A stretch of 64,000 bases of DNA from an uncultured Acidobacteriota bacterium (GTDB lineage Bacteria; Acidobacteriota; Vicinamibacteria; Marinacidobacterales; SMYC01): the NCBI GenBank assembly GCA_947259165.1, contig CAMYKY010000004.1, positions 10,733 to 74,732 of the forward strand, written 5' to 3'. The notes beneath the pieces were generated by a model. That model searched no databases and was not told the DNA's origin. It saw only the letters and a list, made by a program, of their open reading frames with translations. The position numbers and the translations under genes are program-made. Below are positions 5,327 through 64,000 of the stretch, piece by piece (within the stretch, counting starts at the first letter, position 1; the number at the start of each line of letters is the position of its first letter).

Positions 5327-5336
5327 CGGTCGAACC

Positions 5337-7064: not shown

Positions 7065-7099
7065 GGGTACGCTTTCTCCTCGATGCTTCGGGTCCCGGG

Positions 7100-7480: not shown

Positions 7481-7496
7481 GGGTTCTCCTTCGCCG

Positions 7497-8252: not shown

Positions 8253-8266
8253 TTTGTCGTCTCCGT

Positions 8267-12225: not shown

Positions 12226-13061
12226 GACAGGCCTACTTTCTTGTATGCCGTACCGCGGCTGTGATGCACGAACTTGAGCTCGGGGCTCGTCCCTTGCCCG
12301 GACTCCGAGTGGCCTAGAAAGAGGTACCCACCGGGACGCAGCGAGCGAATGAACTTTTCCACCACTCTTTTCTGCTCGTCTGGGTCGAAATAGATCAGGA
12401 CGTTCCGACAGAATACGATGTCGAGATCGCCGAGCCCGTTCTCGTGCTTCAGATTGTGAAAATCGTAGATGACGAGGCGCCTCACTTCATCTTTGACGCA
12501 GTAGCCCTCTGGACACGGCTCAAAAAACCGCCGGCGACGCCGGCGGTCGATGTCTTGAACCTTGGACTCTGGATAGACGCCGTTCGCAGCCCTTTCGAGC
12601 GCAGAAAGCGACAGATCCGATGCATAGATGCGCACGTCCCATGAAGAACGAGTCGTGAGCTGCTCGAGCACCGAGACTGCAATCGAATACGGCTCTTCGC
12701 CGGTAGAGCACCCTGCGCTCCAGATTCTGAGGCTTTGCTCCCCCGACTGGGTCTTGTGCCGGATGAGCTCTGGCAGTGCCACTTGTTCGAGCACTTCGAA
12801 CTGGGGTTGATTGCGAAAAAAGGAGGTCTCGTTGATCGTGAGCACGTCGAGAAGCTGAAGAAGCTCTTCCTCTTGTTCGTTCCCGCGCTGCTTCAAGTAA
12901 CGGTAGTAACGGTAGAAGCTTCCGATGCTCTTGGCGACGAGACGCTTGCCGATTCGCGACGACACGAAAGCCATCTTGTTGTCGGCGAAATAGAGGCCGC
13001 ATTCGTCGTGAATGAAATCGCGAAAGAGACGGAACTCGTCGGCGCTGATCTGCGCGATCAT
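12222..13061 (-). CDS. cheR: Chemotaxis methyltransferase
   Basis: TINETSFFR, WSAGCSTGEEPYS, CRNVLIYFD, GHSES. Confidence 0.97.
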   Translation of the reverse strand: MIAQISADEFRLFRDFIHDECGLYFADNKMAFVSSRIGKRLVAKSIGSFYRYYRYLKQRGNEQEEELLQLLDVLTINETSFFRNQPQFEVLEQVALPELIRHKTQSGEQSLRIWSAGCSTGEEPYSIAVSVLEQLTTRSSWDVRIYASDLSLSALERAANGVYPESKVQDIDRRRRRRFFEPCPEGYCVKDEVRRLVIYDFHNLKHENGLGDLDIVFCRNVLIYFDPDEQKRVVEKFIRSLRPGGYLFLGHSESGQGTSPELKFVHHSRGTAYKKVGLS

Positions 13062-13540
13062 CAGACCTCGCCCGGGGCGACGGCAACGGATGCATCGAGG
13101 GCTTCGGCATCGCCATCCGAAAGAAGGTGGCGTAAATCCAGAATGATGACGAGGCGATCTTCCAACTTCCCAACACCCTGGAGGTAGTCATCATGGATAG
13201 TGTGCTTGAGCTCGTCTGGAGCTGGATCGATCGCATCCGCGGCGAGTTTCATGACTTCGGTCGCCGCATCAACGAGAAACCCCACCGTGAAACCGTCGAG
13301 GTCAACGACAAGAATTCGACTCACCCGGTCCACCGTCGCCTTGCCGAGACCGAGTCGCTCCGCGAGGTCGACGACCGAGACAATCTTGCCACGAAGATTG
13401 ATGATACCGAGCACGTAGTCAGCGGTGCCAGGGACTGAGGTGATCTCCTGAGCCTTGACGATTTCACGCACGGCAAAGATATCGACGCCGAAGGTCTCCC
13501 TACCGATGCGAAAGCAAACGAGATGTGCTGTGCCCGCCAT
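13061..13540 (-). CDS. cheW: CheW scaffold
   Basis: VREIV..VP..GIINLRG..GFLVD. Confidence 0.95.
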   Translation of the reverse strand: MAGTAHLVCFRIGRETFGVDIFAVREIVKAQEITSVPGTADYVLGIINLRGKIVSVVDLAERLGLGKATVDRVSRILVVDLDGFTVGFLVDAATEVMKLAADAIDPAPDELKHTIHDDYLQGVGKLEDRLVIILDLRHLLSDGDAEALDASVAVAPGEV

Positions 13541-13549
13541 GGATGATTC

Positions 13550-15472
13550 TCACGCGCCAGAAAAAGTCTCGACGGAATCGAGTGCGGAGCGGACCTCGTC
13601 GGCCGTCGGCCGCGTCGATTCACCATTCGAGCGCACTGCACGCGAACCGTTTCCGTTCTGAAGAACGTGAAATCGAGAGGTAAGCTCGCGCATCAATCCC
13701 GCTTGGCGTGAAAGCTCCTCCGACGAGGCCGCAAGTTCCGACGAACTCTCGGCGTTTTGCTGAACCATCCCGCGAATCTGTTCGATCGAGTCGACAACTT
13801 GTTCCGTACCGCTCGACTGTTGCTCGGTTGCAGCGCTAATCTCGTGGGTGAGCTCGCCCAGGCGCGACGTCGCTTGTTCGATCTGCTGAGTCCCCGCGGA
13901 TTGTTCGGCAGTCGCTTCGCCGATCTCCTGAGAGCAGCGCGAGACTTCGGTCACCGAACTACCGATATTCTCGAGATTCGAACGGAGCTGCTCGGTACGC
14001 TCAATCCCTGTTGCAACGATGTTCGTCGACTTCTCCATATTCTCGACGGCTTTAGAGACCTGCGACTGAATACGCTGAACCAAATCGGAGATCTCGCCCG
14101 TCGATTTGGCGCTGCGCTCCGCGAGCTTGCGCACCTCTTCGGCCACCACGGCGAAGCCAAGACCGTGCTCACCCGCTCGAGCCGCTTCGATCGCGGCGTT
14201 GAGCGCTAAGAGGTTCGACTGCTCCGCAATCTCGTCGATGACACCCACAATCGTTCCAATGTCCTTGGCCATGCCACCCAGATCTCGGACAAAACCCGCG
14301 GAGGAGCGGATGACTTCCCGAATCTCCCCCATCCCGTGACTCGCGGCTTCCATCGCCGCGCCGCCTTCGTTGACCGCGGCGCTCGCACGCTTCGCGATCG
14401 ACACCAGACGTTCCGCGGTACCCGCCACCGTCTGGACCGAGCGCAGCATGTTCTCGATCGAGGCCAGCGTCTGCGTCGTAGAAGCGGATTGCGACTGCGC
14501 ATTGCGCGCAACATTTTGGATGTTTGCGTTCATCTCATGAAGTGTCGACGTGATGCCTTCTACCGCGCCCACCGTGGACTCGTTACCTCGAGCGGCGTTA
14601 CCAGTGGCACGCGCGACCGAATCACTCCCGGTCGCGACTTCATCGGCGGACGCTTGAACGTGGACAACGATCTCCCGGAGTCCGGCCGAGACGAGGTTGA
14701 ACGCCTTCGAGATCTCGGCCAACTGATCCAGCATGAGGTTGAACGCCATTGCCATTCGCCCAATCTCACCGCCAGCCGCAATATGGATTTTGCGGAAGTT
14801 GACTTGGATCTCTCGCGTCAGGTCACCGCTCGCCATAACCCTCGCCTCTTCGGCAAGCTGCTTCATATCCTGGTTGGCGATATCCTCCGCGGTCTTGGTC
14901 AGGTCGAGAAGCGGGGCCGTCACCTGACGAGCGACGAAGAGGGTTGTCGCGAAGGAGAAAAAGCCGACCACGAGGCTAAAGGCGAGCGCCGTCCACAAGC
15001 TCGCGCGATACTGGGCGGTGATTCTTTGCGTCGAGAGACCTAGCTGGATCGATCCAGTAATGCTTTCCCCGCGTCGCACCGGACCTACAATCTCTAGCGT
15101 GTCATCGCTCTTGGTTGCTTCGAAATCTGTGACGGTATCCGCGACACTCGGGTGCTCCTCGTCTTTGGGATAGCTCAGAAACTCCTGGCCGTCGGCATCG
15201 CGCACGACGATGTAGACCAGGTCCTCGTCCGCGCGAACCCAGTTGAAGACTTGGAGCACCGACTCCTCGTCCTCGAACTCCAGACCTGCAGCAACGCTGT
15301 GGGCGACCATCTGCGTGATGCTCCTCGCCTTGTTCTCGAGAGCTTCTTCACTCGCCGCGCGTTGACGGGACGGGAAGAAGAAAACGATGAAGGTGGCAAA
15401 GACCAACATCATGGCAGCAATGGGCAGGACGAACCGACTTCGAATCGACAGATTCGCAAACCAAGCGGTCAT
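13550..15472 (-). CDS. Methyl-accepting chemotaxis protein (2 TM, periplasmic sensor, HAMP, signalling domain)
   Basis: [40 protein letters not shown]. Confidence 0.97.
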
Positions 15473-48766: not shown

Positions 48767-50740
48767 ATGCCCAAAGCCGAGATTCCCAGCAAAGTCGGTA
48801 AATACGATGTTCGCGGCCTCGTGGGTCGCGGCGCGATGGGTGTTGTCTATAGCGCGGTCGATCCGGCGCTCGGCCGGTCTGTCGCCATCAAGACGATGTC
48901 GATCGCGGAGTCCCCGAACGAGGCCGAGCTGCGTCTGCGCTTCCTGAGGGAAGCTCAAGCAGCGGGTCAGCTCCAGCACCCCAACATCATCACCGTGCAC
49001 GAGCTCTTCGAAGAGGGTGACACCGCGTACCTGGTGATGGAGCTGCTCGAGGGCGCGGCGCTCTCGTCAATCCTGAAGCGGAAGAAAAGCCTCTCTCTCG
49101 GCCAGAAACTGTCGATTATCGATCAAATTGCAACAGGACTCTCCGAAGCCCACGCCCACAAAATCGTTCATCGCGACCTGAAACCCTCGAACGTTTTCGT
49201 CCTCAGAAGCGGCGTCGTCAAAGTGCTCGATTTCGGTGTGGCCAAGGTCGGCGAAGGAGAGCTCACCAAGGCGGGTACCGTGTTTGGTACCGTCGAGTAC
49301 ATGGCGCCGGAGCAGGTGCGCGGGCAAGTGGTCACGCCCCAGGCGGACATTTTCTCGCTCGGCGTCGTCGCGTACGAGGTTCTCGCTGGAAGGAATCCGT
49401 TTCGCGCCGACACGCTCGCGGCATCGGTTTTCAAAATCGTCTCCGACGATCCCGGCAAGCTCAGCGACGAGATGGAAGTACCAGCGGAGATCGAAGCCCT
49501 CGTCGACAAGGCCCTGGCCAAGCAGATGAGAGAGCGTTTTGTCTCGCTCGCCGAGTTCCGAACGGCGCTCGCGGCGGCGATGGCGAACGCCAACCTACCG
49601 CTGGCCGCGCCGGAGCTCAGCGAGGAGGACGTCGTCATCACAAAAGATCGCGGCGACTCGCTCGCGATGTCGGTCGAGCCCCGCGTATCTCAGTGGTCGA
49701 ACGTCGCGGCGCAGGCGGACCTTCTGGAGGAGGTTTACCGCCGGGGTGTCGAGTCCTTTAATGAAGGAAACTTCGAGGACTGCGTCTTGAAGATGAGCCA
49801 GGTGCTCGATGAGGTTCCCGTGCACGCGATGTCGCTGCACTACCTGGCCACGAGCGAGGGGAAGCTCCGCCAAAAACGATTGAGTGAAGACGCAAGACGG
49901 CGCGCTTCGGCTTACTTGTCAGCGATGCGAGATGCGCACAGGCGCGGCGACTCGGTGTTGGTCACCGACCAAGCAAACGAGCTCCTCGCGGTCGATCCCG
50001 AATCACTCGAGGCGCGATGGTATCGTCGCAACGCCGAGGCGCGCCTGCGTGCATCCTCCGTCGGAGGCCGTACCCATTCAACATCTACGGCGACCACAGG
50101 CGATGGCGGGCGCACGGCGTCCAGGTCGCGGGACGGGTCATTGGCTCACCCGGGCGGCAGCTTTGGTTATGCGCCTTCGACCCGCGAGGGACAATTCGGC
50201 TCCGGCCGCACGTTCCCAGGCGCTGACGGCGCCCCAAGTGCCATGGCCTCCCGAGACACGCGCTCCGGAGGCGCCAAAGGGGTCTGGTTTCTCGGCGGCG
50301 TCGCGCTCTTGTTCGTCGCGCTCGTCGGCATGTGGCTCGGAAGCTTGGGCGAGCCGAAGCCCGCGGTGTCCGCGGATCCCATCCAGCTCCCGGGCGTCCG
50401 GAACTCTCCGTTCAACGATCTGGACGACGACGAGACCGTCGTCCTCCGTTTGCCGACACGAGAGCCGGCATTCACGCTCAGCTATGTCATCCCGACGTCG
50501 GTCGTCGCGGGAGAATCCACGACGATCGGTCTGTTCGGACGCGACTTCCCGAGCGACGTGGTTGTGTCCATCGCCGACGAGTCCGTCTCGATCGTCTCGA
50601 CCACGGTGCATAGCGGAGATCACATCGAGCTCCAGCTCCTCGCGGCCGAGCCGCGCGAGTCCATCGAGATCCTGGTCGCCGCTACCGGCGGCTACCGAGC
50701 GAGCGTCCCAATCGAAGTCGAGCTCGCGAGCGAACCCTGA
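48767..50740 (+). CDS. Hanks-type Ser/Thr kinase with TPR-like region, TM segment and external Ig/IPT-like domain
   Basis: GRGAMG, VAIK, HRDLKPSN, DFG, YMAPE; TM segment near the C-terminus. Confidence 0.93.
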   Translation: MPKAEIPSKVGKYDVRGLVGRGAMGVVYSAVDPALGRSVAIKTMSIAESPNEAELRLRFLREAQAAGQLQHPNIITVHELFEEGDTAYLVMELLEGAALSSILKRKKSLSLGQKLSIIDQIATGLSEAHAHKIVHRDLKPSNVFVLRSGVVKVLDFGVAKVGEGELTKAGTVFGTVEYMAPEQVRGQVVTPQADIFSLGVVAYEVLAGRNPFRADTLAASVFKIVSDDPGKLSDEMEVPAEIEALVDKALAKQMRERFVSLAEFRTALAAAMANANLPLAAPELSEEDVVITKDRGDSLAMSVEPRVSQWSNVAAQADLLEEVYRRGVESFNEGNFEDCVLKMSQVLDEVPVHAMSLHYLATSEGKLRQKRLSEDARRRASAYLSAMRDAHRRGDSVLVTDQANELLAVDPESLEARWYRRNAEARLRASSVGGRTHSTSTATTGDGGRTASRSRDGSLAHPGGSFGYAPSTREGQFGSGRTFPGADGAPSAMASRDTRSGGAKGVWFLGGVALLFVALVGMWLGSLGEPKPAVSADPIQLPGVRNSPFNDLDDDETVVLRLPTREPAFTLSYVIPTSVVAGESTTIGLFGRDFPSDVVVSIADESVSIVSTTVHSGDHIELQLLAAEPRESIEILVAATGGYRASVPIEVELASEP

Positions 50741-50843
50741 TGTACCAAATCGGCGCAGCCCTGGTGAGGGAGTTTCACCACGACGATATCGAAACCGGGA
50801 CCAACTATCTTGATTTCCCGCAGTTAAAGCGTGGCGTCACCCA

Positions 50844-50859
50844 TGGCACACTACTTGCT
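50844..50859 (+). promoter_or_regulatory. Sigma54 promoter upstream of wzc
   Basis: TGGCACACTACTTGCT is a near-perfect TGGCACG-N4-TTGCW match, followed by an AT-rich leader. Confidence 0.8.
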
Positions 50860-51020
50860 TTGAAACCTTAGCGAAGCCCCTTAAAATTCTCAAAAAATAA
50901 TCCATTCTTTTTTGAATCGTTTGGAGAACAAGAACTGCCAAAACCGACGCGATCGTCGGTAGCGAGAACGACCCAAACAACTTCTCAGAAACAGTAGATG
51001 GATCCGAAAACGAGCTGATC

Positions 51021-53312
51021 ATGTCGAACGCCAAGTGGCCACACGAAGCCCCGCCAAGGCCCGAGCCCGAAGCGGCCGACTTCTTTCCGCAGACCACCGA
51101 GACCCATCTCCGGGACTATTGGTACATCATCCTCAAGCGACGCTGGATGATTCTCGCTGTGGTTGTTTGCGTCGTCTCCTACTCGGCCGCTCGCGCTCTG
51201 ATGCGAAAGCCAGTCTACTCTGCGACCTCCGTGCTGCAGATCGATCGCGGAAAAATCAACCTCGTGCAAGACGTCATGACGCCCGACTACTGGACCGGTT
51301 ACAATGAGTTTTATCCGACCCAGCAGCGCGTTCTCCAAAGTCGGAACCTCGCCCGGCGTGTGGTTCGACAGCTTCGCTTGTGGGAGCATCCGTACTTCAC
51401 CGGCGGGCATCCGCTCGAAGCCGACGAGCAAACGCTCGAAAATCTCTCCGGCGCAGTCGTCGGGATGCTACAAATCGACCAGATCCGAAACACCCAGCTC
51501 ATGGAGCTGCGTTTCACCACGCTCGACCCACAGGTCTCCGCCGACCTGTCGAATGCGCTCGCACAACAATACATCGCCTTCAGTAGCGAGAGCGAGACGA
51601 CGCTGGCCCGGGACACGGCCGGATTCATCGGAGAGCAAGTCGAAAAGATTCAAAAAGAAATTCAGCAGCGGGAGAAACTTCTCCAGGAGTACAGCCAGCG
51701 CGAAGACTTGATGATGGTAAACGAAAAAGAGCTCAGCGTCATGCGCCAACTGGAAGAGCTCAATACCGCCTACACTCAAGCACGCGCGGCGCGAGCGAAC
51801 GCGGAAGCCAACTTCCGCAGTATCTCTGCCGACGCATCCGGTCTACCGGAAGTCCAGTCGAACCCTTCGATTGAAGATCTGCGTAGCGAACGAGAGCGCG
51901 CTCGAAGGAGCGTTGCGGATCTCAGCTCCAAGTTCAAAGACGACTGGCCCGAGCTCCGGCGTGCTCGCGAAACGCTAGCAGACATCGACCGGCGCTTGGT
52001 CCAAGAGCAGCGGACGGTCGCGAAGAAGCTCGTGGCCCAGTCCCAAGTCGAGTACCGGGCAGCGCTCGAACGAGAAACCCTCCTGCTCCAAGAAGTCGAG
52101 GCCCAGAAGCAGGAAGCCCAGGAGCTCACCGAGCTCACGTCGAACTATAACCAGATCAAGGCGGAGGTCGACAATCAACGCTCCATGCTCCAGCAGCTCT
52201 TGCGGCGCCGCACCGAGACGGGACTCTCCGCCGAGCTCGGCGAGCGCCAGCCCGTCAACGTACGCATCGTGGAGGCCGCTCTCGTACCGAGAGGAGCGAA
52301 TGGGCCTGGGCTCAAGAGAAACTTGTTCATGGGGGCGTTGATAGGTATCGGACTGGCTCTAGGCGCAGCTTTTTTTCTCGACTACTGGGAAACCGCCATT
52401 TACACGATCGAGGATTTGAGAAGGCACGTGCCGCTCCCCTACATGGGGATGGTGCCGCGTCTCGAGGCCGCGTCGTTTGCGCTCTGGGCGGGCAGCAGGG
52501 GGAAATTCCTAGCTTACGACCCTGGCGAGGCGGTCAGCCCGCGGCGGGGCAAGAGCATGAATCGAACCCGCTCGGCGCTCGCGCTCTCCCAAACGACGAA
52601 AGTCGCGTCGCGCGCCAAAGAAGACACCTCGATGATCGCCGAGCGCTTCAAATTCCTTCGTGGCTCCCTCCTGCTATCGACCCCCGGAGCGCCGCCGCGA
52701 ACCGTGCTCGTGACCGGACCCGACAAGAACGCCGGCAAGACGTTCGTCGCGTGCAATCTCGCGACGTCCCTCGCGGATCTCAACAAGAAAGTCCTTCTCA
52801 TCGACGCCGATCTGCGCAATCCCCAACTTCACAAGGTGTTCCGCTTCAAGAATCGAGTCGGGTTGTCGAACGTTCTCTCCGGTCAAACGACGATCGAGAA
52901 AGGCTGTATCGTCTCGACTCCCATCCCGAACCTCTATGTCTTGCTTGCGGGGCCCGCAAGCCCGACACCCGCCGAGCTTCTAGGCTCCTCCAAGATGGAA
53001 GAGACGATGGCGCAGTGCATGGAGCACTTCGACTATGTCCTGCTCGATTCGGCGCCGCTTCTCCCCGTATTCGACTCGCATTACTTGACGGTGCGCGCCG
53101 ACGCGAACTTGCTCGTAGTCCGAAGCGGCCACACGTCGCGACACGCGGTAACGCAGAGTTTGGATCTCATCGATCGCGTCGGCGGCCGTGTCACCGGCGT
53201 GGTTTTGAACGATGTCAATCTCGCTGACTACGCTCAAAACTACTACTACAGCTACCACAGCTACGAGTACGGCACCTATGCCGAAGACCCGGTAGAGCGA
53301 AGGGCGGGTTGA
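51021..53312 (+). CDS. wzc: Polysaccharide co-polymerase/BY-kinase (Wzc/GumC)
   Basis: HLRDYW.II.KRRW, periplasmic coiled coil, AGKT, IDADLR.P, LLDSAP, C-terminal Tyr cluster YYYSYHSYEYGTY. Confidence 0.95.
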   Translation: MSNAKWPHEAPPRPEPEAADFFPQTTETHLRDYWYIILKRRWMILAVVVCVVSYSAARALMRKPVYSATSVLQIDRGKINLVQDVMTPDYWTGYNEFYPTQQRVLQSRNLARRVVRQLRLWEHPYFTGGHPLEADEQTLENLSGAVVGMLQIDQIRNTQLMELRFTTLDPQVSADLSNALAQQYIAFSSESETTLARDTAGFIGEQVEKIQKEIQQREKLLQEYSQREDLMMVNEKELSVMRQLEELNTAYTQARAARANAEANFRSISADASGLPEVQSNPSIEDLRSERERARRSVADLSSKFKDDWPELRRARETLADIDRRLVQEQRTVAKKLVAQSQVEYRAALERETLLLQEVEAQKQEAQELTELTSNYNQIKAEVDNQRSMLQQLLRRRTETGLSAELGERQPVNVRIVEAALVPRGANGPGLKRNLFMGALIGIGLALGAAFFLDYWETAIYTIEDLRRHVPLPYMGMVPRLEAASFALWAGSRGKFLAYDPGEAVSPRRGKSMNRTRSALALSQTTKVASRAKEDTSMIAERFKFLRGSLLLSTPGAPPRTVLVTGPDKNAGKTFVACNLATSLADLNKKVLLIDADLRNPQLHKVFRFKNRVGLSNVLSGQTTIEKGCIVSTPIPNLYVLLAGPASPTPAELLGSSKMEETMAQCMEHFDYVLLDSAPLLPVFDSHYLTVRADANLLVVRSGHTSRHAVTQSLDLIDRVGGRVTGVVLNDVNLADYAQNYYYSYHSYEYGTYAEDPVERRAG

Positions 53313-54478
53313 TCCCCATTCCGGACGCCGCCGAAGGGCCCCCAAGCCCCGAGAACCTTGCTGCCCTCGACGATGTCGTAAAGACGTGCGGGAGCCGGAT
53401 CCGCTCCGGCAAAAGCTTCTTCGAAACCGCTGAATCCGAACGTCTGTCACCCCTCCTCTACCACGTGTTCGATCGTCTCGGTTGGCCCGACACCGTGTCC
53501 AAGGAAGAGCAGCACCACTTCCGGAAGGCTTATTACCTGAGTGCCGGCCAGAACGTCGAGCTGCTGGGTGCGCTATCCGAGGCGGCCCTCGCTCTGCGCG
53601 AACAGGATATCCCCTGTGTCGCGTTCAAGGGCGCCGCACTGGTGAAGCGAATCTACCCCAACGTCGCCGTGCGTCCCATGGGCGATGTCGACGTCTATGT
53701 ACCCCCTGCTAGCGCCGAGCACGCCGAGGCAGTGCTCTCCACGCTTGGCTATCGGCCCTTTTGTCCTGACATGACCCCGGGTCTGAGTCGACGCATTCGT
53801 CACGCGCGCCTGTACGTCGGTGGGACCCGGGAGACGACGAGCATCGACCTCCACTGGTCCTTGGTCGGACACAGCAACGATGCCCGATCTCCCGATCCAC
53901 ACTGGCTGCGCCGAAATATTGTCGCGCGCAATGGCGATCCTTGGATGCATTTTTCCGACACCGCGCACCTTCTCTACCTGAGCGCGCACATGAAGCTGCA
54001 ACACTACGACGAGGAGATTCCCCTGTTGTGGTGTCTCGACTTCTACCTCCTCGCGACTCGGGGGGACATCGCTTGGGACCAGCTCTTGAGCGATGCTCGC
54101 CGCTTTGGCTGGACCGACGCCGTGAGCGCCGTCGCATTCGATGTCCGAGAGCGTCTAGGCGTCGCGCTACCCGCACCCCTCGAGCGGATCGCTAGCGCTC
54201 CGAAAGCCCCGCTTCATCGTCACGGCGCGCGGAACGAGCCCGAGCGCGTCTTGAACGAGCTCCGAGCCCTGGGGTGGTCGGGTCGCCTCGCGCTTGTGAG
54301 AGCCTACGTCCTGCCGTCACCCACCTACATCCGCTTCCGCTACCAGACGCTGAGCTGTCCTCTCGGGTATGCCAAACGTTGGAGCACGATGCTCGCCCGG
54401 GCGGGCACTATTCTTCTGCGCGCACTGCGGCGCAAGCCCGGGACTCGCCCACTATTGACTTCGCGAGAAAATTGCTAG
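53309..54478 (+). CDS. Nucleotidyltransferase family protein (NTP_transf_5-like)
   Basis: FKGAAL..IYP..RPMGDVDV, IDLHW; TTGA overlap with wzc. Confidence 0.88.
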   Translation: MIPIPDAAEGPPSPENLAALDDVVKTCGSRIRSGKSFFETAESERLSPLLYHVFDRLGWPDTVSKEEQHHFRKAYYLSAGQNVELLGALSEAALALREQDIPCVAFKGAALVKRIYPNVAVRPMGDVDVYVPPASAEHAEAVLSTLGYRPFCPDMTPGLSRRIRHARLYVGGTRETTSIDLHWSLVGHSNDARSPDPHWLRRNIVARNGDPWMHFSDTAHLLYLSAHMKLQHYDEEIPLLWCLDFYLLATRGDIAWDQLLSDARRFGWTDAVSAVAFDVRERLGVALPAPLERIASAPKAPLHRHGARNEPERVLNELRALGWSGRLALVRAYVLPSPTYIRFRYQTLSCPLGYAKRWSTMLARAGTILLRALRRKPGTRPLLTSRENC

Positions 54479-54501
54479 GATCGTTTTGTCATCTAAAACC
54501 C

Positions 54502-55419
54502 ATGAGCACTGAGAGCCTTGGAGCGCGCTACCTCGCCCACCCAGATCGATTTCCCGAGTGGGGCGAGGGAGCGCCGTTCGGCCCGCGAGAGACCTCGATG
54601 ACCATCTGCGGTACGCGCGTTCGCATCTCGGGACTGAGCCACGAGCAAGACCGCGCGATTCACGCTTTGTGGCCTGACTTCGTGGGCGAGGACGTCGCTG
54701 AGCCAGCCGCTTTGAGCGTTTTTCGGACTCCTGAGTCGACATTCAAGAAACTGGATCGCTGGGTCTACGAGCTCGACTTCGACTACCAGCCAGGGTCCTT
54801 GCGCCTCGCCGGGCTCGATCTCATGGCGCGGGTCGACATGAGCTCACCGCTACGCGCCGCACTCTGGATCGCTACCGAGTCGCCCGACACCTTCCACGGT
54901 GCGTTTGAGAACTTTCTTCGTGTCGTCGTCGCGTATGCGGCGATGCATCGAGGCGGCGCCTTGGTGCACAGCGCTGCCGTCGTCGACGGTGACGACGCCT
55001 GGCTGTTCGTCGGCCACTCAGGCGCCGGCAAGTCGACGGTCTCCCAGCTAGGACTCGACTCGGGTCGGCGCGTGCTCAGCGACGACCTGAACCCGATTCT
55101 CCCACGCGAGGACAACGGGATCGACGTCGTCGGTAGCCCCTTCCTCGGCGATCTCGGCACACGCTCGCCCGCGCGCCATCGACTCTCGGCTATCTATCGC
55201 CTGGAACAAGGAACAGAGGATAGTCTCCGCCCCATGGGCGCCGCCGAAACGCTCGCGTGTCTGATGGCATGCGCACCTTACATCAACCGTGATCGGCACC
55301 GAGCCGATACGCTTTGTTCGAACCTATTGGAGATGGCACAACAGGTGCCTGCCAAGGTTTTGACCTTTCGTCGGGACGGAACGTTCTGGCCGCTTCTAGA
55401 GAGGACAGCGCTTGCCTGA
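54502..55419 (+). CDS. HPr kinase-like P-loop kinase (RiPP-associated type)
   Basis: VHSAAV..LFVGHSGAGKST..LSDD..SPF. Confidence 0.82.
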   Translation: MSTESLGARYLAHPDRFPEWGEGAPFGPRETSMTICGTRVRISGLSHEQDRAIHALWPDFVGEDVAEPAALSVFRTPESTFKKLDRWVYELDFDYQPGSLRLAGLDLMARVDMSSPLRAALWIATESPDTFHGAFENFLRVVVAYAAMHRGGALVHSAAVVDGDDAWLFVGHSGAGKSTVSQLGLDSGRRVLSDDLNPILPREDNGIDVVGSPFLGDLGTRSPARHRLSAIYRLEQGTEDSLRPMGAAETLACLMACAPYINRDRHRADTLCSNLLEMAQQVPAKVLTFRRDGTFWPLLERTALA

Positions 55420-55714
55420 TTTGAATCTCGTATTTAGACGTAAGGATGACATTCGCTACCGTGTCGTCGGAGACGAGGCCATCGTCGTTCGCCAGAACGC
55501 CGCGGAGGTTCTTGCGCTCAATGACGTTGGCGCGCGTGTTCTCGAGCTCATCGACGCCGACAAGACGCTCGCACAGGTGATCGCGACGATGTCGGGTGAG
55601 TACGACGTCCGCCCAGACGAGCTCGCGAACGATGTGCAACGTTTTGTTGCCGCTATCCGGGATGCCGGTATCGTCGTGGATGTCAGCGAGGAAGTCAGCG
55701 AAAAGGTCCGCTGA
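55412..55714 (+). CDS. PqqD-family RiPP recognition element
   Basis: YRVVGDEAIVV..LNDVGARVLELID....LAQVI..MSGEYDV....DVQRFV..I..AGIV. Confidence 0.92.
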   Translation: MPDLNLVFRRKDDIRYRVVGDEAIVVRQNAAEVLALNDVGARVLELIDADKTLAQVIATMSGEYDVRPDELANDVQRFVAAIRDAGIVVDVSEEVSEKVR

Positions 55715-55719
55715 AAATC

Positions 55720-56820
55720 GTGCGTACCAAGAGAGAGCGTAAGGTTTCGAGCTCCCAAAGCCTGGAGCCGAGCTACGACGAGACCATCCTCGGGACGTGG
55801 GAGAACCATCACCTGTTCTCCGCTCTCGTGGAGTTGACCTATCGATGCAACCTCGATTGCTACTTTTGTTACAACGATCTCGATCTCGCCGGAGACCCCC
55901 TGCGTCTCGCCGACTACGAGCGTCTGTTCGAAGAAATGCGCACGCTCGGTTGCCTGCATTTGACGTTGTCCGGCGGCGAACCGCTCGCCCATCCAGATTT
56001 TTTCGCCATCGGAGCCAAAGCGCGCGAGCTCGACTTCGTAGTCCGAGTGAAAACTAACGGGCATGGGCTCGATCGTGAGCTCGCGGGCAGACTCCGAAGC
56101 GAAGTCGACCCGTTCATCGTCGAAGTCAGCCTGCACGGCGCTTGCGCTGAAACCCACGATCGACAAACGCGCGTTGCCGGAAGCTTCGATCGGCTCGTGC
56201 ACAACCTGGACGTGATGCGAGCGACGGGCCTGCGCGTCAAAATCAACACCGCGCTGACCCGTTGGAACGAGCGCGAGATCGAAGGTATGTTCGCGATTGC
56301 AGACCGCTTTGCCGTACCGCTCACCCTCGATCCTGAGGTCACGCCGCGTGACAACGGAGACCGGGACCCGATGCGCATCAGCGCGTCACCGGAGGGATTG
56401 CGCCATCTCGTCGCGGTACAGGCGAGTCGGCGCAAGGGGACACAAGCCGAGGTCCTGCGAGAAGGCGACGCTGAGATTCACAGCCGGGATCCCGACAGGC
56501 ACTGTGGCGCGGGCGCGTCGGGCATCGCGATCGATCCTTATGGCAATGTCTACCCGTGCGTTCAATGGCGACGGGCCATCGGAAACGTCCACGGAAGCTC
56601 GCTCCAGGGGATCTGGCGCGCGAATGGAAAACTCGATGAAATCCGGCGACTCACCGTCGAAGCCAAAGGAGTCGTGAGCGGCCACGACTCCGAAGTCCCA
56701 CTCGTCGGATTCTGTCCCGGTGTCGCCGAGATGTTGACGGGCGATCCTCTGGCCGTTCCCGAGAGTACATCAACCCGCGCCAACGTCCTGTCGGAGTTGC
56801 CGCTCCACCCCGTCCAATAA
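55720..56820 (+). CDS. Radical SAM protein with SPASM/Twitch extension (PqqE-like)
   Basis: ELTYRCNLDCYFC, SGGEPL, TNG, VSLHG, CGAG..IDPYGNVYPC, FCPG. Confidence 0.93.
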   Translation: MRTKRERKVSSSQSLEPSYDETILGTWENHHLFSALVELTYRCNLDCYFCYNDLDLAGDPLRLADYERLFEEMRTLGCLHLTLSGGEPLAHPDFFAIGAKARELDFVVRVKTNGHGLDRELAGRLRSEVDPFIVEVSLHGACAETHDRQTRVAGSFDRLVHNLDVMRATGLRVKINTALTRWNEREIEGMFAIADRFAVPLTLDPEVTPRDNGDRDPMRISASPEGLRHLVAVQASRRKGTQAEVLREGDAEIHSRDPDRHCGAGASGIAIDPYGNVYPCVQWRRAIGNVHGSSLQGIWRANGKLDEIRRLTVEAKGVVSGHDSEVPLVGFCPGVAEMLTGDPLAVPESTSTRANVLSELPLHPVQ

Positions 56821-56823
56821 AAC

Positions 56824-57017
56824 TCACCACGGAGTCACGCAGGGTTCGAGAGGACCGCAGGGCGTTCGGTTATCGGTTCTGTGCTGCTAGCGCCTGGTAG
56901 TCATTCTCTTCGGCAACAACCTCTGTGAACGCTGGCGCCATGATGCCGGTTTCGAGATCCCGGGCGTTTCCAAAGATAGGGTCTCGTTTCTCCGTGAGAG
57001 CCGTGCCTCCGTGGTGA
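56824..57017. repeat. Intergenic element with 16-bp imperfect terminal inverted repeats
   Basis: tcaccacggagtcacg vs cgtgcctccgtggtga (15/16 match). Confidence 0.7.
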
Positions 57018-57045
57018 AAACCTTCGAAAGCGCGCAGAAGGTAGT

Positions 57046-57222
57046 TCAGGAGCGCTGGGCGAGCGGGCAGGTGCCGACGTTTGCCTTGGCGGGCGGGCGC
57101 GGGGTGCACAGCGCGGCCATAGCTTCGAGCGGCTCGCGGTAGAGGATCTCGGGCCGGCGATATTTCTTCTTGGTGGATGCGGGTCCGTTGGCGGAGGCTC
57201 GTTTCTTTTCGTCGTGTTTCAT
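57046..57222 (-). CDS. Putative RiPP precursor peptide (58 aa)
   Basis: MKHDEKKRASANGPASTKKKYRRPEILYREPLEAMAALCTPRPPAKANVGTCPLAQRS. YxxPxI leader, two Cys, adjacent to RRE and rSAM genes. Alternative GTG start at 57231. Confidence 0.75.
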   Translation of the reverse strand: MKHDEKKRASANGPASTKKKYRRPEILYREPLEAMAALCTPRPPAKANVGTCPLAQRS

Positions 57223-57354
57223 GGGTGTCACTACTATGTTAGCAGAGTTGGAGTTCGGTCTGCAGATTCTGAATCCGGAGCGAACGGCGTCGCGCCCGCG
57301 AGTGTGTCCGGTCCCAACAAGCCGCTGCGTCGTCGCGCCTCTATCCCCCTCTCC

Positions 57355-58638
57355 CTAGGGTCTCAGGATTAGGTTGAAGTTGGCGACCACGCGGCCTTTA
57401 TCGAACGCGACGACGTTCGAGCGACGATCGAAGTACTGAGTAGTCACGCCCACGAACCAGGATCTTTGGATGTTGTACTCGAACGACAACTGCAACGACA
57501 GATGCTCGTCCACGATCTCTTCCTCAACGATCTCGCCGTCGACGTCTTGCGTGATCCTCGGTCGGGGATAGTTGTTGTCACCGACAATCGCTCCTGGCTC
57601 GATCGAAAATCTCTCGTGGAGCTGCCATCTAAAGAAAGCTCCGACGCGATTCTGAACGAAGTACCAGTTGTCAGTGAGGATCGACGGCACGACATCGCGC
57701 TCATAGACGCCGCGTAGCCGATGCCGGCTGGCGGAAGTCAGCCGAACGTCGGCGGCACCGATGGGCCCGGTATAACCGAACCGAGAGTCCGCAACGGGCA
57801 CGAGCTTTCGAAAGCCAACCATCACTCGTCCGGTAATACCGGTCTCGTTCGTCGACGGAACCAGCGCCCGGGGCGACTTGGGCGAAAAATCGAACCCCGC
57901 TCGTGCACCGTACGACTCGTTGTCTCTGATGTCATCGTCAAAAGCTTGCGTTTCGAAAAAGCCCTCGACTATGGCTCGCGTCTTCGAAGTGACTTGCCGA
58001 GCGAAGTCCACCGAGATCGAGTCCTGGACGTTGTTGAGCCGCGACGGAATGGTCGGGTCCTCGAGCGTCTGGTCCCGAATTTCGGTTTTGTACTGATGGT
58101 ATCGAGCCCGAAGCTCATGCCGCCAACCCAGCGCCATGGTCAACGATGTTTCGAAATGATTCGTCCGGGTCTCGACAGGAAAATCGAACTCGCTGGTCGG
58201 ACGCTGGGTCTCGTCGCGAAACTCGTCGTCGACTGCAAGAAGGAATCGCCGACTACCCCATCCACCTCCGACACGCGTGATGTTGAAGACTTGTCGCAGC
58301 GCGACTTGCTCGCGGTAGTAGACAAAATCGACTTCTTGATACACGTCGAAAAATGCCCGGGAACCTAAGGGCAGACGGAGCTGAATCCCCGGACCGAACA
58401 TCGCGCTGATGTCCTGCTGTGGATCCGGCGTCGACAACGTGTTTGAGTCATATCCAGTCGAGAATCGAACGACCGGCGTTGCATAAAACGGCCCGAGCTC
58501 GAAGAGTCCGTCGCGGACGCCGTCGAGCTCGTTTTCGATCAAGTTCACAGACTGGGAGCTAGCAGAGGCGGACGCGAGCAACGCAACCGCAACCGACGTC
58601 AGGACAGTGCCGACACGGCCAGAGAAGGAAATCATCAT
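57355..58638 (-). CDS. Outer-membrane beta-barrel of EPS loci (BBP2/DUF2320-like)
   Basis: Signal peptide; GYDSN motif; alternating beta strands; C-terminal YFDRRSN..FDK. Confidence 0.75.
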   Translation of the reverse strand: MMISFSGRVGTVLTSVAVALLASASASSQSVNLIENELDGVRDGLFELGPFYATPVVRFSTGYDSNTLSTPDPQQDISAMFGPGIQLRLPLGSRAFFDVYQEVDFVYYREQVALRQVFNITRVGGGWGSRRFLLAVDDEFRDETQRPTSEFDFPVETRTNHFETSLTMALGWRHELRARYHQYKTEIRDQTLEDPTIPSRLNNVQDSISVDFARQVTSKTRAIVEGFFETQAFDDDIRDNESYGARAGFDFSPKSPRALVPSTNETGITGRVMVGFRKLVPVADSRFGYTGPIGAADVRLTSASRHRLRGVYERDVVPSILTDNWYFVQNRVGAFFRWQLHERFSIEPGAIVGDNNYPRPRITQDVDGEIVEEEIVDEHLSLQLSFEYNIQRSWFVGVTTQYFDRRSNVVAFDKGRVVANFNLILRP

Positions 58639-59807
58639 GCGGCTCCTAGAATGCGACCCACGGCCCCATGCCGAAACACCGCATCGATCAACCCCCGGTG
58701 CCAGTCGAAATTTGCCTTTTCTTGAATGATTCTCATGACGGTCTCACGCCGGGCGAGCGACATCAGCCGCTCGATGCCCCAATCATTCATGAGTTTGAAG
58801 CTCCGTCTGAGTTTCAGCCCGGTCTCGATCTCTCGCTGAAGCAACGCGCGCCAACGGTGCTCATAGGCGCTTAGCGCAGCAGCGTCCAGGTGATCCGAAG
58901 CAAGGGACGAGTCCAGGGTTTCCGCCGCGAGCTCGGCAGTTCGCATCCCGTAGTAGATGCCGCCGCACGTAGTGGTCTTGATATGACCCGCGGCTTCCCC
59001 CACGACCAGGATCCGGTCGCCAAAACTCTGACGGAGAAACCCGAGCGGAAGCACGCTACATTGAATCGGCCCCGGCGCAGTTTCGGCCCGCGACGCGAGA
59101 TCAGAGCGCGCGAGAAAACGTCGTAGCGTGTTCGGCCCGTCCCGCCGACACAAAAGTCCAACCTTCGCACGGCCTTCCCCGAGAGGAACGACCCACGCGA
59201 AACCCTCGGGCGCCCATCTCTGGCCAAAGTACACCTCGACCTGCCGGGCTGAAAGCGCGAGCTCCGTCTGAACCCCTAGCAGGCGAGACGGCACGTCGTT
59301 GAATCCAAGGGTTCTTAGCAGCGGCATTCCGGCGCCGGTCGCGACAACGACCGCACGGCACCGCAGCGCCCGCTGGGAGGGCTCCTCGGACGCTGCGTCG
59401 GAGACTCTGACATTCACGCCACCGAAGACCGTTTCGACGGCCGTGGCGCGATGGCTCAACAACACGTGCGCTCCAGCCTCGCGCGCGCGTGCGCCGAGGT
59501 AACGGTCGAACTCCCCGCGCACGACGACATGGGCCAGCTCGTTTGCGGTCTCGAACTCCCAACGAAGCCCTCGCGGCGAAACGAACTCGAGATTCGATAG
59601 GCTATGCTGGATGAGATCGTTCGGCAAATGGAACCGCTCGAAGGCCTCGACACCAAGAACCCCGCTGCAATTCACCGGGGTTCCAATCTGCGCATGCTCC
59701 TCGAGCACCGCCACGTGCCATCCTCGTTCGGATAGACGCGTGGCTGCAGTCAGACCCGCAGGGCCAGCTCCCACGACGACGACGTCGTACTTCTCTTGAA
59801 CGGTCAG
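58635..59807 (-). CDS. Geranylgeranyl reductase-family FAD oxidoreductase
   Basis: YDVVVVGAGPAG, IG.PVNCSG, R..FD, FAWVVP, VGEAAG....TCGGIYYG. Start probably CTG overlapping the upstream stop. Confidence 0.85.
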   Translation of the reverse strand: MTVQEKYDVVVVGAGPAGLTAATRLSERGWHVAVLEEHAQIGTPVNCSGVLGVEAFERFHLPNDLIQHSLSNLEFVSPRGLRWEFETANELAHVVVRGEFDRYLGARAREAGAHVLLSHRATAVETVFGGVNVRVSDAASEEPSQRALRCRAVVVATGAGMPLLRTLGFNDVPSRLLGVQTELALSARQVEVYFGQRWAPEGFAWVVPLGEGRAKVGLLCRRDGPNTLRRFLARSDLASRAETAPGPIQCSVLPLGFLRQSFGDRILVVGEAAGHIKTTTCGGIYYGMRTAELAAETLDSSLASDHLDAAALSAYEHRWRALLQREIETGLKLRRSFKLMNDWGIERLMSLARRETVMRIIQEKANFDWHRGLIDAVFRHGAVGRILGAA

Positions 59808-60450
59808 AGCTTCTTCTCCCTTATCTCCCACTTGCCTCGGAACGTGATCCAAAACGAGAGGGCGATCAGTTTGATGTCTAGCCAGAAAGATTGATTTTCG
59901 ACGTAGAGTCGATCGTAGCGAAATTTATGTCGCCGCGGCAGGTCGCGCGGCGCATAAATCTGGGCGATACCGGTCAGACCGGGAGTGACGCTATGGCGCA
60001 TCGCGAAACCCGGGATGGTCGAAAGTGCAACCGGCGCGCCCGACGCTCCCACTTCCACTTCAGCGCTCGCGAGGGCGCGCGGGCCGACGAACGACATGTC
60101 ACCCCGAAAGATGTTCCACAGCTGTGGCAGCTCGTCCATGGCGGTGCCACGCAAAAGTCGACCGACGGGTGTAATTCTCGGATCCCGTTCGCTCGCCTGC
60201 ACGGCTCCGAACCGTTTGTCGGCGTCGGGAACCATCGAGCGAAACTTGAGACCGCGGAAAGTTCTTCCGCCTTTGCCAACCCGATCCTGGCTAAAGAACA
60301 CCGGGCCGCCGTCCGACAATTTCACCGCAGCCGCGATGAGACTCGCAAGGGGCAAAGCAACGACGAGCCCAATGCCCGACAGCATCACGTCAAGACCTCG
60401 CTTCGCAAGAGGCCCGACGATGTTGCCGCTCGTGAGAACCGACGTCGGTA
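59804..60450 (-). CDS. Priming phosphoglycosyltransferase (Bac_transf, small monotopic PGT)
   Basis: KRGLD, GPVFFSQDRVG, KFRSM, DPRIT, DELPQLWNI.RGDMSFVGPR, PGLTG.AQ. Start coordinate approximate. Confidence 0.9.
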
Positions 60451-61646
60451 TCGAGTGGCTCTCCCTTGAAGAGCTCTCCGTAGGCACGGACTTGTTTTCT
60501 GCGATCGAATCGAACACCGGCTCGTCGAGCATTCTGACCGAGTCTCTCGGCGAGCTCTCGATCGCGGTAAAAGCGCGTGATCTCATGAACCAACCCTCCC
60601 ACATCACCCGGGGTAATGACCGAGCCGCAATCGTACTCGGTAGTGATCGCCGCAACTTCTGTCTTCGCCTCCACCGCGGCGACATAGGGACGCCCCGCGG
60701 CCAGAATTCCATAGAGCTTGCTAGGGACGATGTAGCCCGCCAACCCGGGCTTTAGCGAAACGATAAAAACGTCAGCGGTGGCATACGAGTCCCGCAAGCT
60801 CTCACGAGGCTGATACGGCAAAAAGACGACATTGTCGAGCTCCCGGCGCGCGACCTCGCTCTGAAGGGCCTCGCGACGAACCCCGTCACCGACAATCAGA
60901 AAGACCACATCGCGCTCGCTCACGATTATAGAAGCGGCCTCGATCAAACAATCTAGATTCTGGGACAGGCCAATATTGCCGGAATGCATGACGACGAATT
61001 TGTCGGCGAGCCCATGGGCCCGGGAGAACTCGTTGTCTTTCGGTGCCGGTGAAATCGCCTCGGTATCCGCCCAGTTGTGAATCACCGAAACTTTGGACGG
61101 ATCCGCATTTTTTCCCTCGACGAGACGACCCTTCATCGTGTCACCGAGGGCAACGATTCGATCGGCACGCTTGACCAGAAAACAGTTCACCTGTTGCAAG
61201 ATGGCGTTGACGGTCTCGCTACGGAAATCCTCGAGGAGAGTCGCGACTTCCGGGAAGATGTCCTGGCACAAGAAGACGAATCGTGCGCCCATGCGCTTGG
61301 ACGTCATCCATGCTACCAGGCCGATGATTGGGGGATCGGTCAGTGCCACGACGATGTCCGCACGTGGTAAACGCAGCGACACCCAAAAAGCCACGAGAAA
61401 ATAGGTGACATAGTTCGCAAACCGTCCCAAAAAACCGCGTCGGGCGAGTCGCGTGCCGCGGGCGCGAACGATTCTCACGCCTTCGTGGGTGATGGCGTCC
61501 GGCTTCGAGCCGTCCGGCGAAGGCCCGGAGACCACCGTGACGTCGAAGCCGTGCTCTCGCACCAGATCCTGGGTGAGCTCGGTCAGTAGCTGGCCGGTCG
61601 CACCGGTGTCAGGGTAGTAAGAGCGATTAAAGAATACGATCCGCAT
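60390..61646 (-). CDS. GT4 glycosyltransferase (WbuB/WcaI-like)
   Basis: NRSYYPD, QDIFPE, HNWAD, HSGNIG.SQ, VPSKLYG. Confidence 0.92.
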   Translation of the reverse strand: MRIVFFNRSYYPDTGATGQLLTELTQDLVREHGFDVTVVSGPSPDGSKPDAITHEGVRIVRARGTRLARRGFLGRFANYVTYFLVAFWVSLRLPRADIVVALTDPPIIGLVAWMTSKRMGARFVFLCQDIFPEVATLLEDFRSETVNAILQQVNCFLVKRADRIVALGDTMKGRLVEGKNADPSKVSVIHNWADTEAISPAPKDNEFSRAHGLADKFVVMHSGNIGLSQNLDCLIEAASIIVSERDVVFLIVGDGVRREALQSEVARRELDNVVFLPYQPRESLRDSYATADVFIVSLKPGLAGYIVPSKLYGILAAGRPYVAAVEAKTEVAAITTEYDCGSVITPGDVGGLVHEITRFYRDRELAERLGQNARRAGVRFDRRKQVRAYGELFKGEPLDTDVGSHERQHRRASCEARS

Positions 61647-61649
61647 GCG

Positions 61650-64000
<2,351 letters not shown>

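Follow-up and report, generated by a model that had tools for sequence, protein, structure and literature searches.

The subject here is a small gene within a 64,000-nucleotide stretch of DNA from an uncultured Acidobacteriota bacterium ('the window' in what follows, meaning that whole stretch), along with the string of genes that it faces from the opposite strand. The gene encodes 58 amino acids (aa), and its product is probably a RiPP precursor, i.e., the 'A' peptide of a peptide that is made by ribosomes and modified after translation, one serving a string that consists of an NTP_transf_5 nucleotidyltransferase, an HprK-like kinase, a PqqD-type RiPP recognition element (RRE), and a radical S-adenosylmethionine (SAM) enzyme. 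Comparison of sequences across relatives supports, particularly, a radical-SAM RiPP precursor that has a lasso-type leader. The genes in question are as follows.

57046-57222, minus strand: precursor peptide gene, 58 aa plus stop (from its sequence, homologues, conserved positions, and a codon-position test)
53309-54478, plus strand: NTP_transf_5 'uncharacterised nucleotidyltransferase' (PF14907, 1.5e-47)
54502-55419, plus strand: predicted P-loop peptide kinase of HprK-like type, with 305 aa when counted from its ATG (54502)
55412-55714, plus strand: PqqD-family RRE, 100 aa (PF05402, 3.3e-14, 53.4 bits versus a cut-off of 23.4)
55720-56820, plus strand: radical SAM enzyme whose C-terminus is a partial, twitch-like SPASM domain (PF04055, 3.1e-19; PF13186, 2e-7)

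That the peptide would be the substrate of this cassette is argued mainly from adjacency, because the adjacency persists through rearrangements. Linkage was counted over 55 loci, i.e., the window plus 54 others, using profiles of our own alignments on six-frame translations of all 55. Twenty-one of these loci are all that were returned by a scan of species-representative genomes (20 labelled as Acidobacteriota metagenome-assembled genomes and one as Myxococcales), with 20 and 13 more supplied by two phylum-level samples. The 20 were picked to span scores and families from the 88 matching genomes among 401 sampled in the phylum, a tally which includes one unpublished genome (G152), while the 13 were picked by best score from the 22 matching genomes of 301 in a phylum-level sample around the genome of locus L024. 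Within the examined flanks, a radical-SAM orthologue is present at 50 of the 55 loci, as are a PqqD-like gene at 45, an HprK-like gene at 43, a Peptidase_C25-like gene at 28, a gene for an S24/S26-like small protein at 22, and an NTP_transf_5 relative at 19. No more than 400 nucleotides (nt) separate the radical-SAM and peptide genes in 43 loci; among all 50 loci that have both, the two genes are on opposite strands in 23 and share a strand in 27. Gene orders include the convergent one, which is that of the window; radical SAM then peptide; peptide then radical SAM; kinase, RRE, radical SAM, then peptide; and C25, peptide, kinase, RRE, then radical SAM. Of the 13 loci from the L024-centred sample, or second group, 10 have an order of S24-like gene, kinase, RRE, radical SAM, then peptide. 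The radical-SAM RiPP setting proposed by an initial annotation of the window, one made from its letters alone, is thus borne out by linkage at 50 of 55 loci. Its description of a gene lying opposite its enzymes fits the window and is seen in 23 loci, but does not extend to the 27 of 50 in which peptide and radical-SAM genes share a strand.

The open reading frame (ORF) itself runs on the minus strand from a GTG at 57231 to a stop at 57046 (translation VTPMKHDEKKRASANGPASTKKKYRRPEILYREPLEAMAALCTPRPPAKANVGTCPLAQRS, then stop), and includes both of the peptide strings quoted in the initial annotation. The N-terminal Met of homologues aligns with an ATG at 57222 (M4 of the longer frame, nearly invariant), and because homologues begin there the gene is taken as 57046-57222, with MKHDEKKRASANGPASTKKKYRRPEILYREPLEAMAALCTPRPPAKANVGTCPLAQRS as its product. 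Residue numbers used here (Y24, C42, etc.) follow the 61-residue translation from the GTG. A word-indexed search gave 48 homologous proteins of 55-69 aa (E of 3.7e-21 to 2e-10), and a profile of the close homologues, run against 1.84 billion cluster representatives (clusters at 50% identity), gave 418 of them at E ≤ 0.001, of which 36 reach E ≤ 1e-10. Compared pairwise across a 32-codon stretch, Tyr24 through Cys55, 20 orthologues differ 1126, 892, and 2965 times at first, second, and third codon positions, respectively, with L023 (a frameshift-like tail) and L024 (a loop shorter by two residues) having been dropped from this comparison. Invariant residues of the peptide are encoded by 2-4 different codons among the same 20. 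As judged from these homologues and this pattern of substitution, the ORF is a real gene under purifying selection. Some homologues, in fact, have already been called by NCBI and JGI, labelled 'hypothetical protein', which runs counter to an expectation that a gene this short would be easily missed by annotation.

The peptide matches no Pfam or NCBIfam model, and searching its own genome for paralogues yielded only chance-level matches (E of at least 0.135). Rfam gave 0 matches at E ≤ 1 over 50000-64000, and RNA folding of the convergent spacer, 56821-57060, is unremarkable (z = 0.18). Some genomes carry 2-4 copies of the precursor gene, in tandem or each behind its own C25 gene, such as the following.

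L040, 7052-7866, minus strand: multiple precursor gene copies
L041, 7038-7330, minus strand: multiple precursor gene copies
L030, 7021-7188 and 12594-12749, plus strand: multiple precursor gene copies

Conservation was counted over 199 relatives, i.e., 49 close sequences plus the 150 best of the 418 profile representatives. A 'leader' and a 'core' can be distinguished. The basic N-terminus of the window's peptide (residues 1-17 of the 58) is variable, as are the N-terminal approximately 20 residues family-wide, and there then follows the conserved leader, KKKYRRPEILYREPLEAMAA in the window, with a family consensus of [KR][KR]x[Y/W]xxPx[I/V][L/V/I]x[R]E[P]LEAxAAxC. The leader motif of lasso peptides is given as YxxPxL (PMC6784204) and that of lasso-type leaders as [Y/W]xxPx[L/V/I/F/A] (PMC13381572). 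The window's Y24-R-R-P27-E-I29 agrees with the latter form. Across relatives, [Y/W]xxP is found in 199/199 (Tyr in 193, Trp in 6, Pro in 199/199), I or V is found at P+2 in 191/199, and the distance from Tyr to the first Cys is exactly 18 residues in 198/199. Likewise kept are P27 (198/198), Glu36 (198/198), and Ala39 (197/198), with Ala37 seen in 157/198 and the remainder there being mainly V, G, or T. Just ahead of the core, A37-x-A39 is reminiscent of a (-3, -1) site for signal peptidases, a resemblance which matters because many related loci encode the S24/S26-like protein.

The core of the window's peptide, from about Ala/Leu/Cys to a terminal Ser, is CTPRPPAKANVGTCPLAQRS, and across the family it is 15-28 aa as measured from the first Cys. 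Among the 150 best representatives, 148 have exactly one further Cys, at a spacing of 7-19 residues; a Lys lies between both Cys residues, and 5-8 residues extend beyond the second, each also in 148/150. The last residue is Ser in 193/199, Thr in 3, and something else in 3 (aberrant tails). A broader alignment, consisting of the window's peptide and 144 of the 150 representatives (left out were four that exceed 80 aa and two whose tails look frameshifted), has as its invariant columns P27, E36, C42, K49, and C55, with Lys49 present in all 145 of 145 members. By contrast with the last Ser, which is nearly always kept, conservation is lacking at the third residue past the likely site of cleavage. 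Position 43 is A, F, S, T, or V among 20 orthologues. The window's core is without Asp or Glu, and only 80 of the 199 relatives have any acidic residue after the first Cys. The three features whose lack of conservation in syntenic loci would, by the initial annotation's own account, have spoken against it, namely YxxP, both Cys residues, and the Ser at the end, are all conserved (199/199, 148/150, and 193/199). Its Cx12C is the window's spacing as well as the commonest one (59 of these 148), but is not a rule of the family, and its description of the core, right as to the two Cys residues and the terminal Ser, left the invariant Lys between them unlisted. Nor did it tie that Ser, conserved as it is, to the HprK-like kinase and NTP_transf_5 genes found nearby.

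The enzymes are considered next, beginning with that which presumably would first meet the leader. A profile of 17 RRE orthologues matches the lasso B1 proteins TbiB1 (5v1u, 1.6e-9) and TfuB1 (6jx3, 3.5e-7) ahead of true PqqD (5sxy, 1.7e-5), and an RRE nearest to lasso B1 proteins fits with a lasso-type leader motif, in keeping with the 'lasso-like leader' that had been noticed at the outset. The putative kinase is matched by ScmC in 13/13 members (best 2e-13), by HprK_rel_A in 13/13, and by the 'kinase B' model in 11/13, all below cut-offs, and its homologues carry a precomputed assignment to PF27840. Searching PDB by sequence gave no match for either the kinase or the nucleotidyltransferase, with the kinase profile giving P-loop-level matches only. 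The kinase motif is H-x14-G-x2-G-x-G-K-S-x15-D-D (HSAAV...GHSGAGKST...LSDD), with its H, G, G, G, K, S, D, and D at offsets of 0, +15, +18, +20, +21, +22, +38, and +39, invariant in 13/13. This spacing is identical to that of H148, G163, G166, G168, K169, S170, D186, and D187 of BsfK, in which mutagenesis found H148, G163, K169, S170, D186, and D187 to be significant for catalysis (PMC10368454).

The radical SAM enzyme has CxxxCxxC at C43/C47/C50 in 34/34 orthologues, and the window's protein scores 70.2 bits to PF04055 versus a cut-off of 29.5. Beyond CxxxCxxC, only C262, C280, and C332 are conserved among the 34, and the PF13186 match covers only profile positions 1-52 of 67. Full SPASM maturases possess a seven-Cys motif and two auxiliary clusters. 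With just three further conserved Cys residues, the enzyme here is therefore taken to be twitch-like, with a single auxiliary cluster rather than a full SPASM domain. An auxiliary cluster held by three Cys residues has a site open to a substrate thiolate or other substrate atom, as in CteB or MoaA. Best NCBIfam matches are to MftC, NirJ, PqqE, and StsB, all below cut-offs, and the best solved relative is PqqE.

A pathway may be proposed as follows. The RRE would bind Y24-x-x-P27-x-I29 in the manner of lasso B1 proteins and would present the peptide to the enzymes. The radical SAM enzyme would then cross-link the core via C42 and C55, most likely as thioethers, with Lys49 perhaps serving as acceptor or as recognition residue. 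By analogy, the kinase would phosphorylate the last Ser, as HprK homologues do the C-terminal Ser of the paeninodin and pseudomycoidin precursors, and the NTP_transf_5 enzyme might extend that phosphate, e.g., with a sugar, as does PsmN, an 'uncharacterized nucleotidyltransferase' needed for placing a hexose on that phosphate in pseudomycoidin (PMC6993621, PMC8498205). A leader peptidase, where encoded, which is not in the window, probably would cut after A37-x-A39.

A candidate for such a peptidase is the S24/S26-like protein, which resembles proteases of the signal-peptidase/LexA fold and is encoded upstream of the kinase gene (e.g., L015, 10592-11143, minus strand) at 22 loci that do not include the window, i.e., L010, L013-L015, L017, L019, L020, L025, L027, L040, L043, L045, L049-L057, and L059. 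A Cys of this protein (GxCMxP) aligns with the catalytic Ser of SpsB and a His (VHRLLGY) aligns with its Lys. The similarity is weak, with a PDB match at an E of 0.018 and with 14 of 19 members matching S24. The protein may be a Cys/His leader peptidase and counterpart of LppS. A search with one protein query did not find the gene in the window or in its 84%-complete genome.

Several points weigh against the reading of the peptide as substrate of this cassette. The 33 genome-derived loci were chosen from hit lists rather than at random. Five of the 55 loci have no radical-SAM gene in the examined flanks: for L005 and L041 the peptide gene is 104 nt and about 1 kb, respectively, from a contig end, and for L022 an orthologue is found 13 kb off on the same contig, past an inserted giant gene, while for L033 and L060 there is no radical-SAM gene within about 7 kb. 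The window is without a leader peptidase and without an exporter beside the cassette; Pfam scans of 50 window ORFs found neither a Transglut_core3 peptidase nor an ABC exporter (nor a cyclase of the Asn-synthase type), and no ABC transporter families were found among ORFs at 48767-63979. Functions proposed for the enzymes rest on motifs and distant similarity because the kinase, RRE, and radical SAM enzyme are all below NCBIfam cut-offs. The kinases BsfK and LppK phosphorylate Ser3 of the core rather than its C-terminus (PMC10368454, PMC13381572). Lastly, conservation of the core is unusually high for a RiPP and would also be consistent with a role that is cofactor-like or structural.

That last point leads to an alternative which, though we consider it rather improbable, survives best, namely that the peptide is modified by the cassette but is no free natural product, being instead a cofactor precursor, or else a small cross-linked anchor or subunit serving the sugar-polymer machinery or, in other Acidobacteriota, the giant C25-type peptidases encoded next to it. 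Models for this would be PqqA, MftA, and the gamma subunit of quinohemoprotein amine dehydrogenase. MftC (105 bits) and PqqE are, as noted, among the best matches of the radical SAM enzyme, but these are far below cut-offs (105 versus 265 bits for MftC). Leader and core both are strongly conserved in the two phylum-level samples, yet the loop between the Cys residues varies in length (7-19) as well as sequence, unlike in PqqA or MftA. Most matching genomes have a single copy, which speaks for this alternative, whereas the 2-4 tandem copies of some are as seen for antibiotic-like RiPPs. Six loci of the window's type have the cassette packed behind a Wzc-like gene, and 28 of 55 loci have a Peptidase_C25 gene in their flanks, but C25 genes of the window's own genome are on other contigs.

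A second alternative, which seems to us unlikely, accepts modification of the peptide but not the chemistry proposed. Here the Cys residues would form a disulfide or bind metal, with the radical SAM enzyme acting instead on Lys49 or Pro, epimerizing, or making a C-C or ether link, or else the kinase would target some other residue. Radical-SAM RiPP enzymes make Lys-Trp, Glu-Tyr, and ether links. Invariance of Lys49 (145/145) would be consistent with its being acted upon; set against this is the three-Cys auxiliary cluster, which in CteB or MoaA is completed by a substrate thiolate or other substrate atom. As to the kinase, BsfK and LppK act on Ser3 of their cores, and Thr43 of the window's peptide would be a third residue were the core to start at Leu41. 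Position 43 nonetheless varies, as given above, while it is the last residue that is Ser in 193/199.

Very improbable, in turn, is that the peptide goes unmodified, as a small protein that regulates or chaperones the polymer operon and merely sits beside the cassette, or that it is a lasso peptide. Speaking for these readings are that its gene follows the porin gene of the sugar-polymer operon on the same strand in eight loci, that its leader motif and RRE are lasso-like, and that a lasso B2-type gene lies beside the peptide gene of L022. Against them, adjacency to the radical-SAM gene outlasts changes of order, strand, and surroundings in two phylum-level samples, neither the window nor six related loci scanned with Pfam have an Asn-synthase-type cyclase, and the window's core has no acidic residue, with any such residue present in only 80 of 199 relatives. 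The initial annotation's own statement that this is not a lasso peptide agrees with that lack, in window Pfam scans, of an Asn-synthase-like cyclase and with a core devoid of Asp and Glu.

The L022 gene just mentioned encodes a true Transglut_core3 (lasso B2-type) domain, at 8051-8587 on the minus strand and convergent with the peptide gene, its ORF continuing antisense through the latter. Transglut_core3 'hits' beside the peptide gene in other loci were rejected as they represent antisense translation of the conserved peptide gene; only that of L022 is true. Also found in many Acidobacteriota loci are giant proteins, of about 1500-2500 aa, that end in Peptidase_C25 (gingipain/PorU family) and whose genes adjoin the peptide gene, e.g.:

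L015, 3434-7954, plus strand: giant C25 gene
L017, 3484-7974, plus strand: giant C25 gene
L022, 8624-16111, minus strand: giant C25 gene

One database protein (P0095, 714 aa) combines a C25 C-terminus and the peptide within a single ORF. The window's genome possesses at least four C25 genes, every one on another contig.

Returning to the window, its cassette belongs to a tightly packed string of five plus-strand genes, the first being Wzc-like and the last the radical-SAM gene, which is convergent with the peptide gene. On the other side of the peptide gene, directly upstream and on its same strand, is a porin gene. These flanking genes are as follows.

51021-53312, plus strand: Wzz plus BY-kinase, i.e., a polysaccharide co-polymerase/tyrosine autokinase, Wzc-like (Wzz, AAA_31, and TIGR01007 at 158.8 bits versus a cut-off of 108)
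57355-58638, minus strand: outer-membrane beta-barrel BBP2_2, a porin (PF10082, 1.3e-5, 24.7 bits versus a cut-off of 23.7)

Junctions within the plus-strand string are overlaps or gaps of 4-23 nt. A putative TTG start of the NTP_transf_5 gene overlaps the stop codon of the Wzc-like autokinase (TTGA), so that the cassette's start and the autokinase's end would overlap, and the RRE gene, from its TTG, shares 8 nt with the end of the kinase gene. The kinase ORF at its longest begins 228 nt earlier than listed, at 54274, which takes it into the nucleotidyltransferase gene; since homology begins only at about residue 75 of that longer ORF, translation probably starts at the ATG at 54502. The Wzc-like gene is in the same position in L006, L008, L009, L011, and L023. 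The BBP2_2 gene is the last of a sugar-polymer operon that runs carbamoyltransferase, GDP-fucose synthase-like, GT4, Bac_transf, FAD reductase-like, and then BBP2_2, with this porin-side order shared by L005-L009, L011, and L023. Between its Bac_transf and porin genes, and keeping that place in orthologous loci, is a gene for a geranylgeranyl-reductase-family FAD protein (58635-59852, minus strand; TIGR02032 at 190 bits, above cut-off) which also weakly matches a model of the QhpG monooxygenase. Directly before the Wzc-like gene is one for a PknB-like Ser/Thr kinase (48767-50740, plus strand, 657 aa), a position kept in L006, L008, L009, and L011. Approximately 35 kb from the polysaccharide locus is a complete chemosensory gene string (4922-15472, minus strand), encoding an MCP with CHASE8, CheW, CheR, CheA, CheB, response regulators, and CheX, as well as a GAF protein, a DUF4388 response regulator, and a PilZ protein.

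Because the pathway is wired into an exopolysaccharide locus, its product probably would act at or with a cell-surface polymer rather than as a variable antibiotic. A more specific idea, which we offer as a long shot, is that the modified peptide is part of exopolysaccharide assembly: a sugar-extended phospho-Ser would serve as primer, anchor, or end-cap for the operon's polymer, the Wzc-like autokinase would couple tailoring to export, and, in other Acidobacteriota, the giant C25 (PorU/gingipain-family) peptidases encoded beside the peptide gene would process or attach the result.

Upstream of the peptide gene there is, in addition, a promoter-like word.

57236-57244, minus strand: extended -10-like word TGCTAACAT, 13 nt upstream of the ATG at 57222, a candidate promoter element

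The initial annotation had credited the gene with its own promoter. Of that claim the word itself holds up, in that TGnTAnnAT is found in seven of the eight loci of the window's type (i.e., the window, L005-L009, L011, and L023), where it is the only conserved island in an otherwise unalignable spacer between porin and peptide genes. A scan of 56700-57500 for the sigma-70 consensus, however, gave 0 full promoters because a -35 element is absent. The island takes the form TGTTATCAT, TGGTATCAT, or TGGTATGAT in six other loci and TGTTATCAA in L006, or, as alternatively written for the orthologous loci, TG[GT]TATCAT or TGGTATGAT. It ends just 7-8 nt before the homologous ATG in L007, L008, L009, L011, and L023, and an island so near to a start codon would imply a leaderless or nearly leaderless mRNA, while L005 and L006 have longer spacers that contain AGGTGGA. 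No such word was found in 13 loci in which a C25 or other gene precedes the peptide gene. By its conservation we thus infer a promoter-like element, as a candidate.

Should the proposed reading be correct, then this would be a large family of RiPPs, represented by 418 clusters and by 88 of 401 genomes sampled in the phylum and 22 of 301 in the second group. It also would join a toolkit of kinase, nucleotidyltransferase, and RRE, known first from lasso peptides and from the linear polyphosphorylated peptides (LPPs) of 2026, to radical-SAM cross-linking, and extend that toolkit from Bacillota to Gram-negative bacteria of soil and sediment. Positions on offer for testing are Y24, P27, A37-x-A39, C42, K49, C55, and the last Ser. 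As a second, independent case of such peptides within capsule or exopolysaccharide loci, it further would sharpen the question of what phosphorylated peptides do at cell surfaces. No published description of this combination of genes was found in the full-text literature, a coverage which excludes subscription journals and supplements.

Among known systems, those of the sacti- and ranthipeptide maturases (AlbA, SkfB, StsB, CteB, PapB) likewise combine a radical SAM enzyme, an RRE, and a Cys-containing core, and StsB, AlbA, and SkfB are among the weak matches of the radical SAM enzyme here. The RRE of the present system, however, is a separate protein instead of an N-terminal domain, the seven-Cys SPASM pattern is absent, and the thioether is a predicted one. 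'SynChlorMet' provides the same trio, HprK-related (ScmC, TIGR04249), PqqD-like (ScmD, TIGR04248), and radical SAM/SPASM (ScmE, TIGR04250; ScmF, TIGR04251), side by side, and by profile score its models are the nearest named families for the cassette enzymes. Scores nevertheless are below cut-offs (31.7 versus 125 for ScmC, 25.2 versus 100 for ScmD, 77.1 versus 400 for ScmE, and 68.2 versus 400 for the remaining model), and there is one radical-SAM gene here rather than two. No paper using the word 'SynChlorMet' was found in the full-text literature.

With the phosphorylated lasso peptides, i.e., paeninodin, pseudomycoidin, and Bsf, the system has in common a B1-type RRE, a YxxP leader, an HprK-like kinase with the same motif spacing, and a nucleotidyltransferase (PMC6993621, PMC8498205, PMC10368454). 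It shares as well a C-terminal Ser, which carries the phosphate in paeninodin and pseudomycoidin and, in the latter, a hexose on that phosphate (PMC6993621, PMC8498205). What differs is that the window has no macrolactam synthetase (C) or B2 peptidase, and its peptide no conserved acidic acceptor, with a radical SAM enzyme present instead.

The likeness is greatest to the LPP family, that is, to LppA/K/B/S/D/N of Paenibacillus alginolyticus (Popov et al., Nat Commun 2026; PMC13381572), peptides which have YxxP leaders and are without a cyclase, which are found in capsule loci, which are stated to be restricted to Bacillota, and to which no role is assigned there. In contrast, the hosts here are Acidobacteriota and a second group. 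The radical SAM enzyme is here the most constant partner (50/55), whereas the LPP paper has 0 mentions of radical SAM or of Acidobacteria. The core is short, with two Cys residues, a Lys, and a terminal Ser, rather than having, as in LPPs, a variable C-terminus and a phosphorylated Ser3, and the leader, YRRPEILYREPLEAMAALC, shares just YxxPx[IV][LV] with the LPP consensus of YxxPxVLxHQxIxFETxxS. There is no MsbA-like exporter beside the cassette and, in the window, no SpI-like (archaeal-type signal peptidase) leader peptidase. The position of LppS is taken in 22 of 55 related loci, though not in the window, by the gene for the S24/S26-fold peptidase-like protein, one with a Cys and a His where signal peptidases have Ser and Lys. 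What the two systems hold in common, as LPPs are described in that paper, is a discrete lasso-type RRE, a [Y/W]xxPx[V/I/L] leader, an HprK-like kinase, an NTP transferase, the lack of a lasso cyclase, and residence in a polysaccharide-biosynthesis locus near a tyrosine autokinase gene, with kinase, RRE, and NTP transferase genes in one cluster (in the window all three are adjacent, at 53309-55714). The LPP family thus is best read as the closest characterized system, and the system described here as its radical-SAM-containing relative.

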